Below, piece by piece: positions 1-58,359 of a DNA stretch of 64,000 nt; the stretch's first letter is position 1; each line of letters begins with the position of its first letter. Made by a program: the position numbers and the translations under genes. The notes under the pieces are model-generated. The model did not search any database, was not told the DNA's origin, and worked only from the letters and a program-made list of their open reading frames with translations. The DNA lies in NCBI RefSeq assembly GCF_003790525.1, contig NZ_CP033635.1, one strand, 5' to 3'. This DNA comes from Escherichia coli (GTDB lineage: Bacteria; Pseudomonadota; Gammaproteobacteria; Enterobacterales; Enterobacteriaceae).

Positions 1-797
1 ACCGAAACTCCGTGGTGTAGTGCGTTTGTTGGTGCGGTGTTCCCTGCGCCAGCGGGGATAAACCGTTGGTATTAACGGGAATGTAGTCACTCCAGGAGTG
101 TTCCCTGCGCCAGCGGGGATAAACCGGCGATCGTATTTTCCGCTACGTCGCTCAAATGGTGTTCCCTGCGCCAGCGGGGATAAACCGTCGTTGATGGTGT
201 GATGAGTGTACAAAAAAAAGTGTTCCCTGCGCCAGCGGGGATAAACCGACGACTGAATCCGGCGAGGCTATCAACTGGCCGTGTTCCCTGCGCCAGCGGG
301 GATAAACCGCCGCACACGTCGAGCTGGTGGGGATTAATGCTGTGTTCCCTGCGCCAGCGGGGATAAACCGCAGTAAACGTTCGCGCGTTCTCGCGCTCAC
401 GAGTGTTCCCTGCGCCAGCGGGGATAAACCCTCTGTGTATTCGCTACCAGCCAGCACCGGTACGTGTTCCCTGCGCCAGCGGGGATAAACCGCAGGGTAA
501 CTGGCTGCTCCTCAACCATTCCGCGTGTTCCCCGCGCCAGCGGGGATAAACCGGGGTTTTAGCGACCGGACCAGAGTACGCAACAGTGTTCCCCGCGCCA
601 GCGGGGATAAACCGTTGCGCCTTAAGTTCCTTAACTTCCTCTGTATGTGTTCCCCGCGCCAGCGGGGATAAACCGGGAGTGATGAATTGGAAGTAACGGA
701 TAACCGCGTGTTCCCTGCGCCAGCGGGGATAAACCGGACGCACTGGATGCGATGATGGATATCACTTAGAGTTCCCCCCGCCCCTGCGGTAGAACTC
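1..797 (+). CRISPR. Type I-E CRISPR array, iap-proximal (distal) end; 13 repeats in window including a degenerate terminal repeat; truncated by window start
   Basis: 29-bp repeat GTGTTCCC(T/C)GCGCCAGCGGGGATAAACCG at a strict 61-bp period starting at 37,98,159,220,281,342,403,464,525,586,647,708; 32-bp unique spacers; degenerate repeat GAGTTCCCCCCGCCCCTGCGGTAGAACTC at 769-797; positions 1-36 are the end of a further repeat plus one spacer. Confidence 0.97.
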
Positions 798-9684: not shown

Positions 9685-10824
9685 ATGAGCGCGGGAAGCC
9701 CAAAATTCACCGTTCGCCGCATTGCGGCTTTGTCACTGGTTTCGCTATGGCTGGCAGGCTGTTCTGACACTTCAAATCCACCGGCCCCGGTCAGCTCCGT
9801 TAATGGCAATGCGCCTGCAAATACCAATTCTGGTATGTTGATTACGCCGCCGCCGAAAATGGGGACGACGTCTACAGCGCAGCAACCGCAAATTCAGCCG
9901 GTACAGCAGCCACAAATTCAGGCCACTCAACAACCGCAAATCCAGCCGGTGCAGCCAGTAGCTCAGCAGCCGGTACAGATGGAAAACGGACGCATCGTCT
10001 ATAACCGTCAGTATGGGAACATTCCGAAAGGCAGTTATAGCGGCAGTACCTATACAGTGAAAAAAGGCGACACACTTTTCTATATCGCCTGGATTACTGG
10101 CAACGATTTCCGTGACCTTGCTCAGCGCAACAATATTCAGGCACCATATGCGCTGAACGTCGGTCAGACCTTACAGGTGGGGAATGCTTCCGGTACGCCA
10201 ATCACTGGCGGAAATGCCATTACCCAGGCCGACGCAGCAGAGCAAGGAGTTGTGATCAAGCCTGCACAAAATTCCACCGTTGCTGTTGCTTCGCAACCGA
10301 CAATTACGTATTCTGAGTCTTCGGGTGAACAGAGTGCTAACAAAATGTTGCCGAACAACAAGCCAACTGCGACCACGGTCACAGCGCCTGTAACGGTACC
10401 AACAGCAAGCACAACCGAGCCGACTGTCAGCAGTACATCAACCAGTACGCCTATCTCCACCTGGCGCTGGCCGACTGAGGGCAAAGTGATCGAAACCTTT
10501 GGCGCTTCTGAGGGGGGCAACAAGGGGATTGATATCGCAGGCAGCAAAGGACAGGCAATTATCGCGACTGCAGATGGCCGCGTTGTTTATGCCGGTAACG
10601 CGCTGCGCGGCTACGGTAATCTGATTATCATCAAACATAATGATGATTACCTGAGTGCCTACGCCCATAACGACACAATGCTGGTCCGGGAACAACAAGA
10701 AGTGAAGGCGGGGCAAAAAATAGCAACCATGGGTAGCACCGGAACCAGTTCAACACGCTTGCATTTTGAAATTCGTTACAAGGGGAAATCCGTAAACCCG
10801 CTGCGTTATTTGCCGCAGCGATAA
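9685..10824 (+). CDS. nlpD: Murein hydrolase activator lipoprotein NlpD (LysM + M23 domains)
   Basis: 379-aa ORF, lipobox LAGC, Q/P-rich linker, LysM and C-terminal M23 region; recognised NlpD. Confidence 0.95.
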
Positions 10825-10886
10825 ATCGGCGGAACCAGGCTTTTGCTTGAATGTTCCGTCAAGGGATCACGGGTAGGAGCCACCTT

Positions 10887-11879
10887 ATGAGTCAGAATAC
10901 GCTGAAAGTTCATGATTTAAATGAAGATGCGGAATTTGATGAGAACGGAGTTGAGGTTTTTGACGAAAAGGCCTTAGTAGAAGAGGAACCCAGTGATAAC
11001 GATTTGGCCGAAGAGGAACTGTTATCGCAGGGAGCCACACAGCGTGTGCTGGACGCGACTCAGCTTTACCTTGGTGAGATTGGTTATTCACCACTGTTAA
11101 CGGCCGAAGAAGAAGTTTATTTTGCGCGTCGCGCACTGCGTGGAGATGTTGCCTCTCGCCGCCGGATGATCGAGAGTAACTTGCGTCTGGTGGTAAAAAT
11201 TGCCCGCCGTTATGGCAATCGTGGTCTGGCGTTGCTGGACCTGATCGAAGAGGGCAACCTGGGGCTGATCCGCGCGGTAGAGAAGTTTGACCCGGAACGT
11301 GGTTTCCGCTTCTCAACATACGCAACCTGGTGGATTCGCCAGACGATCGAACGGGCGATTATGAACCAAACCCGTACTATTCGTTTGCCGATTCACATCG
11401 TAAAGGAGCTGAACGTTTACCTGCGAACCGCACGCGAGTTGTCCCATAAACTGGACCATGAACCAAGTGCGGAAGAGATCGCAGAGCAACTGGATAAGCC
11501 AGTTGATGACGTCAGCCGTATGCTTCGTCTTAACGAGCGCATTACCTCGGTAGACACCCCGCTGGGTGGTGATTCCGAAAAAGCGTTGCTGGACATCCTG
11601 GCCGATGAAAAAGAGAACGGTCCGGAAGATACCACGCAAGATGACGATATGAAGCAGAGCATCGTCAAATGGCTGTTCGAGCTGAACGCCAAACAGCGTG
11701 AAGTGCTGGCACGTCGATTCGGTTTGCTGGGGTACGAAGCGGCAACACTGGAAGATGTAGGTCGTGAAATTGGCCTCACCCGTGAACGTGTTCGCCAGAT
11801 TCAGGTTGAAGGCCTGCGCCGTTTGCGCGAAATCCTGCAAACGCAGGGGCTGAATATCGAAGCGCTGTTCCGCGAATAA
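10887..11879 (+). CDS. rpoS: RNA polymerase sigma factor RpoS (sigma-38), full length
   Basis: ORF track start 10851 trimmed to ATG 10887 ([11 protein letters not shown]...), 330 aa; codon 33 is GAG (Glu). Confidence 0.96.
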
Positions 11880-11895
11880 GTAAGCATCTGTCAGA

Positions 11896-11930
11896 AAGGC
11901 CAGTCTCAAGCGAGGCTGGCCTTTTTCTTT
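11896..11930 (+). terminator. Rho-independent terminator downstream of rpoS
   Basis: GC-rich hairpin AAAGGCCAGTCTCAAGCGAGGCTGGCCTTT followed by a T-tract. Confidence 0.8.
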
Positions 11931-11998: not shown

Positions 11999-12439
11999 CT
12001 ATTTGCTCATCATCTTGCGCACCAGCTGCATAAACAGCTCCTGCTCTTCTGCACTCAAACGCCCCAAAAATTCCTCATCCACACTGTCACCAATCGGTAT
12101 CGCCGCAGCAAGTACCTTTTCTCCTTCGGCAGTCAGCCAGACAAAGCGTCGCCGCTTATCAGCAGAGTCATGTTCTCGTCTGACTAAGCCACGATTTTCC
12201 ATTCGTGCCAACATTTCTGCCAGCGTTGCTTTGGTGCTGACGGCTGCTTCTATCAGTGCCACCTGTTCGATACCAGGTTTATCAGCAATGGCGCGCATCA
12301 CCGCGTACTGTGGTTTGGTCAGATCAGGTAACTCGTGCTGCCAGCGAGCCGTGTGCTGCTGAAAAAGCTGTCGTAACTGATGGAACGCTTTATTTCGTAA
12401 CGCCATGTAAACTCCGGGCAAACTATCTGCCGCTATCAT
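11999..12439 (-). CDS. MarR/SlyA-family transcriptional regulator
   Basis: 146-aa ORF with winged-helix region typical of the MarR family; divergent from the decarboxylase operon. Confidence 0.85.
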   Translation of the reverse strand: MIAADSLPGVYMALRNKAFHQLRQLFQQHTARWQHELPDLTKPQYAVMRAIADKPGIEQVALIEAAVSTKATLAEMLARMENRGLVRREHDSADKRRRFVWLTAEGEKVLAAAIPIGDSVDEEFLGRLSAEEQELFMQLVRKMMSK

Positions 12440-12552: not shown

Positions 12553-13146
12553 ATGAAACTGATCGTCGGGATGACAGGGGCTACCGGTGCGCCTCTTGGG
12601 GTGGCATTACTGCAAGCGCTGCGGGAGATGCCGAATGTCGAGACTCATCTGGTGATGTCGAAGTGGGCGAGAACCACCATTGAACTGGAAACGCCTTACA
12701 GCGCTCGCGATGTTGCTGCCCTCGCAGACTTCAGCCATAACCCGGCGGATCAGGCGGCGACCATCTCCTCAGGTTCCTTTCGTACCGACGGCATGATCGT
12801 TATTCCGTGCAGTATGAAAACGCTCGCCGGTATCCGTGCCGGTTACGCCGATGGCCTGGTGGGGCGCGCGGCGGACGTCGTGCTCAAAGAAGGCCGCAAA
12901 CTGGTGCTGGTGCCGCGTGAAATGCCGCTTAGCACAATCCATCTCGAAAATATGCTCGCACTTTCGCGCATGGGCGTGGCGATGGTGCCGCCGATGCCTG
13001 CCTTTTATAACCATCCCGAAACGGTAGATGACATTGTCCACCACGTGGTAGCCCGCGTGCTGGATCAATTTGGCCTCGAACATCCTCACGCCAGGCGCTG
13101 GCAAGGATTGCCGCAGGCCCGGAATTTTTCTCAGGAGAATGAATAA
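12553..13146 (+). CDS. UbiX/Pad1-family flavin prenyltransferase, B subunit of a non-oxidative hydroxyarylic acid decarboxylase system
   Basis: 197-aa ORF, N-terminus MKLIVGMTGATGA typical of the UbiX/PAD1 flavoprotein fold; translationally coupled (ATAATGG) to the UbiD-like gene; ecdB/kpdB/bsdB-type. Confidence 0.88.
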   Translation: MKLIVGMTGATGAPLGVALLQALREMPNVETHLVMSKWARTTIELETPYSARDVAALADFSHNPADQAATISSGSFRTDGMIVIPCSMKTLAGIRAGYADGLVGRAADVVLKEGRKLVLVPREMPLSTIHLENMLALSRMGVAMVPPMPAFYNHPETVDDIVHHVVARVLDQFGLEHPHARRWQGLPQARNFSQENE

Positions 13147-14573
13147 TGGCATTTGATGATTTACGCAGCTTTTTACAGGCGCTCGACGACCATGGGCAAT
13201 TGCTGAAAATCAGCGAAGAGGTGAACGCAGAACCGGATCTGGCAGCCGCAGCCAACGCCACCGGGCGTATCGGCGACGGCGCGCCCGCGCTGTGGTTTGA
13301 CAATATTCGCGGCTTTACCGATGCCCGCGTGGCGATGAACACCATCGGTTCCTGGCAGAACCACGCGATTTCCCTCGGCCTGCCGCCAAATACCCCGGTT
13401 AAAAAACAGATCGATGAGTTTATCCGCCGCTGGGACAACTTCCCGATAGCCCCGGAACGCCGAGCCAATCCAGCCTGGGCGCAGAACACCGTCGATGGCG
13501 AAAAGATTAACCTGTTCGATATCCTGCCGCTGTTTCGTTTAAACGACGGTGATGGCGGTTTCTATCTCGACAAAGCGTGCGTGGTTTCCCGCGATCCGCT
13601 CGACCCGGATAACTTCGGCAAGCAGAACGTCGGTATCTACCGCATGGAAGTGAAGGGCAAACGTAAGCTCGGCCTGCAACCGGTGCCGATGCACGATATC
13701 GCGCTGCATCTGCATAAAGCGGAAGAGCGCGGTGAAGATCTGCCGATTGCCATCACCCTCGGTAACGATCCGATCATCACCCTGATGGGGGCCACGCCGC
13801 TGAAATATGATCAGTCCGAGTACGAAATGGCGGGCGCGCTGCGCGAAAGTCCGTACCCGATTGCCACCGCCCCACTGACCGGTTTTGATGTACCCTGGGG
13901 CTCGGAAGTGATCCTCGAAGGGGTTATCGAAAGTCGTAAACGTGAAATCGAAGGGCCGTTCGGTGAGTTTACCGGGCACTACTCCGGCGGGCGCAACATG
14001 ACCGTGGTGCGCATCGATAACGTCTCTTATCGCAGCAAACCCATTTTTGAATCGCTCTATCTCGGGATGCCGTGGACGGAAATCGACTACCTGATGGGGC
14101 CAGCCACCTGCGTGCCGCTGTATCAGCAACTGAAAGCCGAGTTCCCGGAAGTGCAGGCGGTAAACGCCATGTACACCCACGGCCTGCTGGCGATTATCTC
14201 CACCAAAAAACGCTACGGTGGCTTTGCCCGCGCGGTGGGCCTCCGTGCGATGACCACGCCACACGGTCTGGGCTATGTGAAGATGGTGATTATGGTCGAT
14301 GAAGACGTTGATCCGTTCAACCTGCCGCAGGTGATGTGGGCGCTCTCTTCGAAAGTGAACCCGGCAGGGGATTTGGTGCAGTTGCCGAATATGTCCGTGC
14401 TGGAACTCGACCCTGGCTCAAGTCCGGCGGGGATCACCGACAAGCTGATTATCGACGCCACCACGCCTGTCGCCCCGGACAACCGTGGTCACTACAGTCA
14501 GCCGGTGGTGGATTTACCGGAAACCAAAGCCTGGGCTGAAAAACTGACCGCTATGCTGGCCGCACGTCAATAA
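13146..14573 (+). CDS. UbiD-family decarboxylase, C subunit of a hydroxyarylic acid decarboxylase
   Basis: 475-aa ORF of UbiD size and sequence character; in operon between UbiX-like and small-subunit genes; ecdC/kpdC/bsdC-type. Confidence 0.88.
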   Translation: MAFDDLRSFLQALDDHGQLLKISEEVNAEPDLAAAANATGRIGDGAPALWFDNIRGFTDARVAMNTIGSWQNHAISLGLPPNTPVKKQIDEFIRRWDNFPIAPERRANPAWAQNTVDGEKINLFDILPLFRLNDGDGGFYLDKACVVSRDPLDPDNFGKQNVGIYRMEVKGKRKLGLQPVPMHDIALHLHKAEERGEDLPIAITLGNDPIITLMGATPLKYDQSEYEMAGALRESPYPIATAPLTGFDVPWGSEVILEGVIESRKREIEGPFGEFTGHYSGGRNMTVVRIDNVSYRSKPIFESLYLGMPWTEIDYLMGPATCVPLYQQLKAEFPEVQAVNAMYTHGLLAIISTKKRYGGFARAVGLRAMTTPHGLGYVKMVIMVDEDVDPFNLPQVMWALSSKVNPAGDLVQLPNMSVLELDPGSSPAGITDKLIIDATTPVAPDNRGHYSQPVVDLPETKAWAEKLTAMLAARQ

Positions 14574-14583
14574 GGAGAACAAG

Positions 14584-14820
14584 ATGATTTGTCCACGTTG
14601 TGCTGATGAACAGATTGAAGTGATGGCGAAATCGCCGGTAAAAGATGTCTGGACGGTCTACCAGTGCCAGCATTGCCTCTATACCTGGCGCGATACCGAA
14701 CCGCTGCGCCGCACCAGCCGCGAACATTATCCCGAAGCGTTCCGCATGACGCAGAAAGATATTGATGACGCGCCGATGGTGCCGAGCATCCCGCCGCTGC
14801 TGGCGGAAGGTAAGTGTTAA
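14584..14820 (+). CDS. Small zinc-ribbon subunit (D) of the hydroxyarylic acid decarboxylase
   Basis: 78-aa ORF with CPRC...CQHC motif, 10 nt after the UbiD-like gene. Confidence 0.8.
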   Translation: MICPRCADEQIEVMAKSPVKDVWTVYQCQHCLYTWRDTEPLRRTSREHYPEAFRMTQKDIDDAPMVPSIPPLLAEGKC

Positions 14821-18854: not shown

Positions 18855-19283
18855 TTACGCTTTGGTGGCAATCAGGATGGCTGATGCTTTGATCAATGCA
18901 ATAACGCGCGAGCCAGTGGTGAGTTTCATTTCATCCTGACTTTCATTTGTTACCACTGCCACAATTTCAAAACCCGCATCCGTTTTGATATGGACAGTGG
19001 CGTTCACTGCGCCTTCGGTGATTGTCGACACGCTGCCAGCAAACTGGTTGCGAGCAGAGAATTTCAGTCCACAGTCTTCCGTTGCCAGTGTTACCCACGG
19101 GGCTTTAATCAGGGCAATCGCTTCTTTCCCTTTTGCCAGACCAAGAGCCTGCTGGCTGCTGTGTGTAACAATTGCCACCAGCTTTGCACCACCTGCCAGC
19201 GTCAGTTCTACTTCATCATTCACAGCGCCCATTGCTACTGCGCTAACTGTTCCGGTTAATTGATTTCTTGCTGAAACTGCCAT
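18855..19283 (-). CDS. Tandem Mop/TOBE-domain (di-Mop) molybdate-binding protein
   Basis: Two internal ~65-aa repeats each beginning SARNQ.. and ending ..ALIKA; likely start ATG at 19283 preceded by AAGGAGG; longest ORF extends to 19322, 5 nt after the fhlA stop. Confidence 0.8.
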   Translation of the reverse strand: MAVSARNQLTGTVSAVAMGAVNDEVELTLAGGAKLVAIVTHSSQQALGLAKGKEAIALIKAPWVTLATEDCGLKFSARNQFAGSVSTITEGAVNATVHIKTDAGFEIVAVVTNESQDEMKLTTGSRVIALIKASAILIATKA

Positions 19284-25308: not shown

Positions 25309-25770
25309 ATGACTATTTGGGAAATAAGCGAGAAAGCCGATTACATCGCACAGCGGCATCGTCGCCTACAGGACCAGTGGCACATCTACTGTAATTCGCT
25401 GGTTCAGGGGATCACGTTATCGAAAGCGCGCCTGCATCACGCCATGAGCTGCGCGCCGGACAAAGAACTCTGTTTCGTCCTTTTTGAACATTTTCGTATT
25501 TATGTCACCCTGGCGGATGGCTTTAACAGCCACACCATCGAGTATTACGTCGAAACAAAAGAGGGTGAAGACAAACAGTGGATTGCGCAGGCGCAACTGA
25601 GCATTGACGGCATGATTGATGGCAAGGTCAACATCCGCGATCGGGAACAGGTTCTGGAACACTATCTCGAAAAAATCGCTGGCGTTTACGACAGCTTATA
25701 TACCGCCATTGAAAACAATGTGCCGGTGAATTTAAGCCAACTGGTAAAGGGACAAAGCCCGGCAGCATGA
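25309..25770 (+). CDS. hycA: Formate hydrogenlyase regulatory protein HycA
   Basis: 153-aa ORF, recognised HycA. Confidence 0.93.
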   Translation: MTIWEISEKADYIAQRHRRLQDQWHIYCNSLVQGITLSKARLHHAMSCAPDKELCFVLFEHFRIYVTLADGFNSHTIEYYVETKEGEDKQWIAQAQLSIDGMIDGKVNIRDREQVLEHYLEKIAGVYDSLYTAIENNVPVNLSQLVKGQSPAA

Positions 25771-33195: not shown

Positions 33196-33969
33196 TTGAA
33201 CATCAGAACAGGGATGTGCGCTTTTTTATTGAGCTTAGTGCTGCCTGCACAGGCCACCAGCTTTACCGAATATCTGCCGATGAGTGACAGCGAATACGCG
33301 CAAAAGCGGGCGCTTAAACCTCTCCTGACCATGCCTTATGATGCCGAGCAAAACTGGCATTTTAGAAAAGTGGGCGTTGCTGGCGTGACGCTTGAGAAGA
33401 TGCCAAATGAAGAGGATTACTGGCAATTAACTGCTAAAGACCGCACCGGTAAATCCTGGAAGGTGCCTGTGGGTTTGCTGGCAAATATGGCGGGCAAAGG
33501 GCAGTTCTATCGTGCCGATCTGGATCGTAACGGCATTCAGGATCTGGTTATCTGGTTACCAAGTGCTGGTAATGGTCTGGCTCCTTATGCACATTTAATC
33601 CTTATGACGTTCACGCGCGATGGTCGTCCCTGTGTCTTTGAACCTTGGGGATTCTACACCGCAAGCAAAACTGGCGTAGATGATTTGCTGGATTTGCAAG
33701 GCAATGGCCACACGCAATTGCTGGATATGCAGTTTGATTCCGGTTACTGGATAACCAGTCTGTATCAGGTAAAAGACGCCAAATGGCAGCGTGTTCACGG
33801 CTGGTTTGGCAAGTTAAGCTATCCCGCGCTCACGCGTTTTACTTATACCCCCAACCGTAAACTCGTCCTCAAACCCATCGCCGGGCGCGACCCGCAAACG
33901 GAAGATCTGGCACTGACGCAGCGTTGCTTGATAAAGGGGGATGTTCTTGATGGGGTGAACCAGCTCTGA
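33196..33969 (+). CDS. Hypothetical secreted (periplasmic) protein, family unknown
   Basis: 257-aa ORF; Sec-type signal peptide MNIRTGMCAFLLSLVLPAQA then TSF (TTG start at 33196, alternative ATG at 33214); Trp-rich; two D-x-D/N-x-N-G-like motifs (DLDRNGIQD, DLQGNGHTQ); not recognised as a named E. coli protein. Confidence 0.65.
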   Translation: MNIRTGMCAFLLSLVLPAQATSFTEYLPMSDSEYAQKRALKPLLTMPYDAEQNWHFRKVGVAGVTLEKMPNEEDYWQLTAKDRTGKSWKVPVGLLANMAGKGQFYRADLDRNGIQDLVIWLPSAGNGLAPYAHLILMTFTRDGRPCVFEPWGFYTASKTGVDDLLDLQGNGHTQLLDMQFDSGYWITSLYQVKDAKWQRVHGWFGKLSYPALTRFTYTPNRKLVLKPIAGRDPQTEDLALTQRCLIKGDVLDGVNQL

Positions 33970-34055: not shown

Positions 34056-36946
<2,891 letters not shown>

Positions 36947-38364: not shown

Positions 38365-38892
38365 ATGAACCGTTTCATCATTGCTGACGCGAGTAAATGT
38401 ATTGGTTGCTGTACCTGTGAAGTGGCGTGCGTGGTTTCTCATCAGGAGAATCAGGACTGTGCATCGCTGACCCCGGAAACTTTTTTACCGCGAATCCATG
38501 TCATTAAAGGTGTGAACATTTCTACGGCAACAGTCTGCCGTCAGTGTGAAGATGCACCGTGTGCTAACGTCTGCCCGAATGGTGCTATCAGCCGTGATAA
38601 AGGGTTTGTTCATGTGATGCAGGAACGTTGCATTGGTTGCAAAACCTGCGTTGTGGCTTGCCCGTATGGCGCGATGGAAGTGGTGGTACGTCCGGTGATT
38701 CGCAACAGCGGCGCGGGGCTGAATGTACGGGCTGACAAAGCCGAAGCCAATAAATGCGACCTCTGTAACCATCGTGAAGACGGCCCGGCGTGTATGGCGG
38801 CTTGCCCGACCCATGCGCTGATTTGTGTCGATCGTAATAAACTTGAACAACTGAGCGCAGAAAAACGTCGCCGTACGGCGCTGATGTTCTAA
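38365..38892 (+). CDS. hydN: Electron transport protein HydN (4Fe-4S ferredoxin-type)
   Basis: Start trimmed to [22 protein letters not shown] (175 aa); four Fe-S cysteine clusters. Confidence 0.92.
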
Positions 38893-47893: not shown

Positions 47894-49048
<1,155 letters not shown>

Positions 49049-49058
49049 GTTTCAGCCT

Positions 49059-50596
<1,538 letters not shown>

Positions 50597-52064: not shown

Positions 52065-52538
52065 ATGACTGACAGTGAACTGATGCAGTTAAGCGAACAG
52101 GTTGGGCAGGCGCTGAAAGCCCGTGGCGCAACCGTAACAACTGCTGAGTCTTGTACCGGTGGTTGGGTAGCGAAAGTGATTACCGATATTGCCGGTAGCT
52201 CCGCCTGGTTTGAACGCGGATTTGTCACCTACAGTAACGAAGCCAAAGCGCAAATGATCGGCGTACGTGAAGAGACGCTGGCGCAGCATGGCGCGGTGAG
52301 TGAACCCGTCGTGGTGGAAATGGCGATAGGCGCACTGAAAGCGGCTCGTGCTGATTATGCCGTGTCTATTAGTGGTATCGCCGGGCCGGATGGCGGCAGT
52401 GAAGAGAAGCCTGTCGGCACCGTCTGGTTTGCTTTTGCCACCGCCCGCGGCGAAGGTATTACCCGCCGGGAATGCTTCAGCGGTGACCGTGATGCGGTGC
52501 GTCGTCAGGCTACTGCGTATGCATTGCAGACCTTGTGA
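52065..52538 (+). CDS. pncC: NMN amidohydrolase PncC (CinA C-terminal domain), apparently 8 codons shorter than the K-12 protein
   Basis: ATG at 52065 (MTDSELMQLSEQ...), 157 aa ending ...ALQTL then TGA; a second in-frame stop 8 codons later at 52560-52562. Confidence 0.88.
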   Translation: MTDSELMQLSEQVGQALKARGATVTTAESCTGGWVAKVITDIAGSSAWFERGFVTYSNEAKAQMIGVREETLAQHGAVSEPVVVEMAIGALKAARADYAVSISGIAGPDGGSEEKPVGTVWFAFATARGEGITRRECFSGDRDAVRRQATAYALQTL

Positions 52539-52558
52539 CAACAATTTCTACAAAACAC

Positions 52559-53703
<1,145 letters not shown>

Positions 53704-57766: not shown

Positions 57767-57859
57767 GGTGAGGTGGCCGAGAGGCTGAAGGCGCTCCCCT
57801 GCTAAGGGAGTATGCGGTCAAAAGCTGCATCCGGGGTTCGAATCCCCGCCTCACCGCCA
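57767..57859 (+). tRNA. serV: tRNA-Ser (anticodon GCU)
   Basis: 93-nt sequence GGTGAGGTGGCCGAGAGGCTGAAGGCGCTCCCCTGCTAAGGGAG...CGCCTCACCGCCA with long variable arm and encoded CCA. Confidence 0.95.
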
Positions 57860-57862
57860 TTT

Positions 57863-57939
57863 GCATCCGTAGCTCAGCTGGATAGAGTACTCGGCTACGA
57901 ACCGAGCGGTCGGAGGTTCGAATCCTCCCGGATGCACCA
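57863..57939 (+). tRNA. tRNA-Arg (anticodon ACG), copy 1
   Basis: 77-nt GCATCCGTAGCTCAGCTGGATAGAGTACTCGGCTACGAACCGAGCGGTCGGAGGTTCGAATCCTCCCGGATGCACCA. Confidence 0.95.
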
Positions 57940-58003
57940 TCTCTTACTTGATACGGCTTTAGTAGCGGTATCAAAAAATCTGCAGTAAAGTAAGTTTCCC
58001 GAT

Positions 58004-58080
58004 GCATCCGTAGCTCAGCTGGATAGAGTACTCGGCTACGAACCGAGCGGTCGGAGGTTCGAATCCTCCCGGATGCACCA
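58004..58080 (+). tRNA. tRNA-Arg (anticodon ACG), copy 2
   Basis: Identical 77-nt sequence. Confidence 0.95.
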
Positions 58081-58142
58081 TCTCTTACTTGATATAGCTT
58101 TAGTGGCGGTATCAATATCAGCAGTAAAATAAATTTCCCGAT

Positions 58143-58219
58143 GCATCCGTAGCTCAGCTGGATAGAGTACTCGGCTACGAACCGAGCGGTCGGAGGTTCG
58201 AATCCTCCCGGATGCACCA
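58143..58219 (+). tRNA. tRNA-Arg (anticodon ACG), copy 3
   Basis: Identical 77-nt sequence. Confidence 0.95.
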
Positions 58220-58282
58220 TCTCTTACTTGATATGGCTTTAGTAGCGGTATCAATATCAGCAATAAAATAAATTTTCCCGAT

Positions 58283-58359
58283 GCATCCGTAGCTCAGCTG
58301 GATAGAGTACTCGGCTACGAACCGAGCGGTCGGAGGTTCGAATCCTCCCGGATGCACCA
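58283..58359 (+). tRNA. tRNA-Arg (anticodon ACG), copy 4
   Basis: Identical 77-nt sequence. Confidence 0.95.

Follow-up and report, generated by a model that had tools for sequence, protein, structure and literature searches.

An rpoS gene with GAG at the polymorphic codon 33 in a stretch of Escherichia coli DNA of the natural-isolate type

The rpoS locus

The window, by which we mean the whole 64-kb stretch of Escherichia coli DNA analysed here, carries rpoS, the gene for the general stress and stationary-phase sigma factor, sigma-S. The features of the locus are listed in Table 1. In brief, the rpoS ORF is 993 nt long and encodes 330 aa, beginning with ATG at position 10887 and ending with TAA at 11877..11879, which is its sole stop, and no stop occurs within it. 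The original prediction had placed GAG at positions 10983-10985, as codon 33 of a gene for a 330-aa RpoS, and direct reading and translation agree with it in position, codon and length. ORFs and the annotations of strains SMS-3-5 and MG1655 give the gene order surE-pcm-nlpD-rpoS, a conserved enterobacterial context.

The main promoter of rpoS, together with the greater part of its long 5' leader, presumably lies within the upstream gene nlpD. The 1,250 nt that precede rpoS run collinear with MG1655; they contain 15 substitutions and no indel, and the last 161 nt of these (10726..10886) are free of changes. On the other side of the gene, a terminator scan found a hairpin resembling an intrinsic terminator 14 nt past the rpoS stop.

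Beyond the terminator lies a variable segment, which encodes a MarR-family regulator and the subunits B, C and D of a hydroxyarylic acid decarboxylase. The gene for subunit D is followed by pphB and then mutS; MG1655 has ygbN-ygbI in the place of the segment. K-12 and similar genomes share only the first 46-52 nt after rpoS, terminator included, of the sequence found downstream in the window. The 3-kb MarR-decarboxylase segment is present at a coverage of at least 80% in 2,379 of 5,426 genomes (44%). It belongs to the well-known polymorphic region between rpoS and mutS, of which PMC3074542 also speaks. In the genome of 23CRST013 the match to the segment is interrupted, giving two parts, and an ISVsa5 transposase is annotated within it.

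Table 1. Features of the rpoS locus, in positions of the window
Feature	Position	Strand	Description and basis
nlpD	9685..10824	+	ORF; so annotated by RefSeq in SMS-3-5, where the sequence is identical
Shine-Dalgarno GGAG	10875..10878	+	8 nt 5' of the rpoS ATG; function assigned from position
rpoS	10887..11879	+	330 codons and TAA; sigma-S, general stress / stationary-phase sigma factor; ORF, translation, family models
rpoS codon 33	10983..10985	+	GAG (Glu33), polymorphic site; 10887+96, direct reading
Intrinsic-terminator-like hairpin	11893..11926	+	15 pairs, then a T run; 14 nt past the rpoS stop; terminator scan
Variable rpoS-mutS segment	11999..14820		Occupies the place of K-12 ygbI-ygbN; ORFs, SMS-3-5 and MG1655 annotations
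MarR-family regulator	11999..12439	-	ORF, SMS-3-5 annotation, Pfam MarR
Hydroxyarylic acid decarboxylase subunit B	12553..13146		ORF, SMS-3-5 annotation
Hydroxyarylic acid decarboxylase subunit C	13146..14573		ORF, SMS-3-5 annotation
Hydroxyarylic acid decarboxylase subunit D	14584..14820		ORF, SMS-3-5 annotation

The RpoS protein

By its sequence, the gene is an rpoS gene, and its product belongs to sigma-S, group 2 of the sigma-70 family. The protein scores 604.6 bits against the NCBIfam equivalog model for RpoS, NF004207 (cut-off 394, residues 1-329), and 480.7 bits against TIGR02394 (cut-off 378.7), where the alignment begins at residue 48. Every score of the protein against the NCBIfam models for RpoD and RpoH was under the cut-off. 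The Pfam sigma-70 regions are found in order, Sigma70_r1_2 at residues 56-88, r2 at 94-163, r3 at 174-248 and r4 at 262-315, all above their gathering scores. Over its residues 1-330 the protein also matches two E. coli RpoS chains of known structure, 5ipl and 6kj6.

The numbering of codon 33 depends on the start codon. In the ORF listing the rpoS frame is open back to an ATG at 10851, and translation from there would give a protein of 342 aa in which codon 33 becomes codon 45. We regard this longer form as very improbable and dropped it for the 330-aa start, which is the one annotated by RefSeq in both MG1655 and SMS-3-5. Positions 1-329 of NF004207 align to residues 1-329 of the 330-aa form, the E. 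coli RpoS chains of known structure have the Met of that form as their first residue, and the GGAG motif sits at the distance given in Table 1 ahead of the ATG at 10887.

Counted from the 330-aa start, residue 33 is located in the acidic N-terminal tail of RpoS, ahead of region 1.2 and outside all conserved sigma regions of Pfam and TIGR02394. This position fits the tolerance of Glu, Gln or Tyr at the site. The PDB constructs have E33 in 5ipl and Q33 in 6kj6.

There is a slight chance that Glu33 and Gln33 differ subtly in sigma-S activity, stability or RssB-mediated turnover. If so, the physiology of K-12 strain MG1655 would misrepresent that of natural isolates as far as residue 33 is concerned. 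Nothing in the window itself argues for such a functional difference, and the activity of the Q33E form is noted as functionally similar in the literature to which PMC3074542 refers. Since Glu33 and Gln33 are reported to be functionally equivalent, we treat codon 33 as a marker of strain, with protein function unchanged.

Codon 33 in complete E. coli genomes

Probes of 63 nt centred on codon 33 were matched against 5,426 complete E. coli genomes, and exact matches were counted. The GAG probe matched exactly in 4,818 of the 5,414 genomes with any match (approximately 89%), and those listed were natural isolates from many sources. It should be noted that approximately 138 genomes with other variants of the flanks or the codon fall outside these exact counts.

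The other alleles were much less frequent. CAG was found in 173 genomes, and the best 60, which were those listed, were all K-12 strains, namely MG1655, BW25113, DH10B, MC4100, DHB4 or similar. TAG was found in 121 genomes, among them, within the best 60 listed, W3110, J53, EMG2, WG1, NCM3722, AG100, HMS174 and RR1, as well as the B derivative BLR(DE3). The TAT probe matched a single genome, that of C600. Among the matches listed, the carriers of CAG, TAG and TAT are thus, apart from BLR(DE3), laboratory strains of K-12 or strains derived from them; rare carriers outside K-12 may exist beyond the best 60 for CAG and the best 60 for TAG.

A further 163 genomes matched the GAG probe at 90-95% identity. 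The idea that these hold a different codon-33 allele was rejected on the example of strain Ec-FL1-1X, which has GAG, 26 differences across rpoS that are all synonymous, and the same protein as the window (WP_000081550.1).

MG1655 does not share the GAG codon: a base-by-base comparison with NC_000913.3 (b2741) reads CAG (Gln) at codon 33, as the original prediction had it. The same prediction had named amber TAG for some K-12 lineages and GAG as the form usual in natural isolates, and both statements hold in the survey, the latter also for Ec-FL1-1X and in agreement with PMC2700278 and PMC3074542. Judged from these counts, GAG is the species-wide state of codon 33 in E. coli.

Two genomes gave split alignments of the codon-33 probe. 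In FDAARGOS_1058 (NZ_CP065970.1 2111503..2111581) the probe falls into two aligned pieces that together span 79 nt, a sign that 16 bp may have been duplicated or inserted near codon 33. In strain 2020N21-246-1 (NZ_CM125665.1 1373933..1373971) parts of the probe align at two separate places of the record, a sign that rpoS may be disrupted. From these alignments, both appear to be examples of naturally damaged rpoS alleles.

In the window, rpoS is approximately 40 kb from srlAEBD (47894..50578) and recA (52642..53703), that is, within the range of P1 co-transduction. The K-12 amber allele TAG in the B derivative BLR(DE3) would fit an rpoS allele that was carried along when a recA or srl marker was transferred between laboratory strains.

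Origin of the polymorphism

The polymorphism of codon 33 and the variable rpoS-mutS region are already known, having been described since about 2000-2004, and our survey of 5,426 complete genomes supplies current allele numbers for a known polymorphism. In K-12 strains codon 33 is TAG in some and GAG, TAT or a Gln codon in others, natural isolates outside K-12 commonly have GAG, and the codon of MG1655 is CAG (Dong et al. 2009, PMC2700278). For the polymorphism, the text of PMC2700278 refers to Atlung et al. 2002 (PMID 11810263) and Subbarayan & Sarkar 2004 (PMID 14618393). Among the sequenced ECOR strains, nearly all are listed with the change C97G/Q33E (Ferenci et al. 2011, PMC3074542).

From its distribution within E. 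coli, GAG is most likely the ancestral state of codon 33. The codons are linked by single-base steps, GAG to TAG and then TAG to either CAG or TAT. These steps agree with published work that traces the K-12 variants back to an amber mutation, with the direction deduced rather than observed. We suggest that the derived states of the K-12 laboratory lineage would be amber TAG, followed by the single-base changes to CAG (Gln) in MG1655 and to TAT (Tyr) in C600.

Strain affinity of the window

The whole window is collinear with positions 2887636..2951635 of strain SMS-3-5 (NC_010498.1), with four single-base differences, none of which is in rpoS. Over its first 25 kb the window is without a difference from SMS-3-5 and from five other genomes (100% identity). 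In the collection of complete genomes none is identical to the whole window, nor to its positions 25001-50000, where the best genomes have 2 mismatches. The rpoS gene itself is 100% identical in nucleotide sequence to that of SMS-3-5 and 20 other listed complete genomes. Chance is not at issue, because the observation concerns the state of one codon, in a gene that these 21 genomes share without a difference.

Compared with MG1655, the window rpoS differs at 8 of 993 bases. Only the difference in codon 33 (Q33E) alters the protein, and the other 7 are synonymous. DNA of MG1655 would have CAG at codon 33 and ygbI-N between rpoS and pphB-mutS; the window has GAG at the one and the genes for MarR and the decarboxylase subunits BCD at the other. 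The latter replacement, together with the 7 synonymous differences and the collinearity with SMS-3-5, means that the window is not from MG1655, and the original prediction, which had drawn this from codon 33, was right. The window certainly does not derive from MG1655 or any other K-12 strain.

Some K-12 strains are reported to have Glu (GAG) at codon 33, according to the account in PMC2700278, which cites Atlung 2002. The source of the window might therefore be imagined as a K-12 stock with its amber codon reverted to GAG, and GAG would then be no marker of natural isolates. We give this origin a next to negligible probability. It is refuted by the synonymous differences of rpoS from K-12 and by the different flanking genes, namely those for MarR and decarboxylase BCD, which stand where K-12 has the ygbI-N segment. 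Against it stand also the 15 substitutions upstream of rpoS, the match of 64 kb to SMS-3-5 with only four mismatches, and the presence of extra genes that MG1655 lacks.

The window rpoS is the ordinary wild-type gene of an E. coli of the natural-isolate type, of the SMS-3-5 lineage, encoding a full-length sigma-S with Glu33. As an overall explanation, an ordinary wild-type Glu33 rpoS, with GAG species-wide and most likely ancestral and the K-12 states derived, is in our view very nearly assured. Codon 33 types the window as E. coli of the non-K-12, natural-isolate kind with an undamaged rpoS. Such typing is useful for interpreting stress-related genes elsewhere in the genome, and is otherwise bookkeeping.

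Other features of the window

The four differences from SMS-3-5 are at positions 25644 (hycA), 36672 (ascF), 38410 (hydN) and 52538 (pncC). Three of these, 25644, 38410 and 52538, are private to the window, and the latter two are absent from the approximately 5,420 complete genomes probed. In pncC (52065..52562, + strand), TGG has become TGA at 52538, where SMS-3-5 has G. This W158* change shortens nicotinamide-nucleotide amidase PncC by 8 residues at its C-terminal end. The 63-nt context of this base in the window had an exact match in 0 of 5,419 complete E. coli genomes, and the TGA may have arisen by private mutation or been introduced, or it may be an error of sequencing.

In hydN (38365..38892, + strand), a C-to-T change at 38410 gives R16C in the N-terminal CIGCRTCEVAC iron-sulfur cluster motif of HydN. 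The window base is shared by 0 of 5,424 genomes, and SMS-3-5 and MG1655 both have C. The hycA change at 25644 is synonymous, with C in both MG1655 and SMS-3-5. At 36672 in ascF the window agrees with MG1655, and the change is specific to SMS-3-5, in which AscF has E92 versus V92.

The window begins inside a type I-E CRISPR array adjoining iap; in positions 1..739 the repeat GTGTTCCCYGCGCCAGCGGGGATAAACCG occurs 12 times, with a period of 61 nt. In SMS-3-5 the array extends upstream to a complete cas3-casABCDE-cas1-cas2 set. Relative to MG1655 the window has two small gene insertions. One (33196..33969, + strand) is an ORF of approximately 251-257 aa between hycI and ascB, corresponding to hypothetical protein WP_012311597.1, where the gap in MG1655 is only 158 bp. 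Pfam gave no match for this ORF, and its N-terminus is hydrophobic and resembles a signal peptide. The other (18855..19283, - strand) encodes a 142-aa protein with tandem TOBE domains, of the molybdate- or anion-binding type, between fhlA and ygbA, which are only 36 bp apart in MG1655. A tRNA-Ser(GCT) followed by four tRNA-Arg(ACG) is found downstream of csrA (57767..58359, + strand).

Intact gene and general stress response

The original prediction had taken the allele to predict an intact general stress response. The part of this that concerns the gene stands, as both the ORF and the leader are intact. An intact gene is necessary and not sufficient for the response. Among ECOR strains, one and the same RpoS sequence goes with RpoS levels anywhere from very low to the highest: the RpoS amino-acid sequence of ECOR69, the strain with the most RpoS, is also that of ECOR2 and ECOR22, in which RpoS is very low (PMC3074542). 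The prediction needs softening, because RpoS levels vary in this way among strains with the same RpoS and the phenotype also depends on loci outside the window. RpoS expression and activity in the source strain are here what we infer from sequence.

It may be that rpoS is intact and the stress response is nevertheless weak or altered, from a cause outside the ORF such as rssB, crl, hfq, sRNAs, ppGpp levels or a regulatory change. We consider this unlikely. Besides the ECOR strains that combine one RpoS sequence with low or high levels, rpoS is defective in 20-30% of natural isolates (PMC3074542), and none of the trans-acting loci (rssB, crl, hfq etc.) is located within the window. On the other hand, the locus is intact in its ORF, its Shine-Dalgarno sequence, its leader and its terminator, the gene is identical to that of the 21 listed independent isolates, and the rpoS region of the window has no positive sign of any defect.

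Comparison with known RpoS

RpoS of MG1655 (b2741, NP_417221.1) is like that of the window in length and in the 329 other residues, and the nlpD-rpoS arrangement, the leader and the terminator are also alike. The two differ in that MG1655 has Gln33 (CAG) and the window Glu33 (GAG), besides the 7 synonymous differences. The downstream neighbour of rpoS is ygbN in MG1655 and the MarR-family gene in the window.

The amber allele of W3110-type K-12 strains is the same gene with the same polymorphic codon, in which TAG halts translation, whereas the window has no stop there. As Subbarayan and Sarkar are said to have found in 2004, strains with TAG at codon 33 yield little full-length sigma-S unless they are rescued by a suppressor tRNA or by internal re-initiation.

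The closest counterpart is the RpoS of natural isolates, WP_000081550.1, as found in SMS-3-5 and Ec-FL1-1X. It is identical to the window protein over 330 aa, Glu33 included, with no difference between them.
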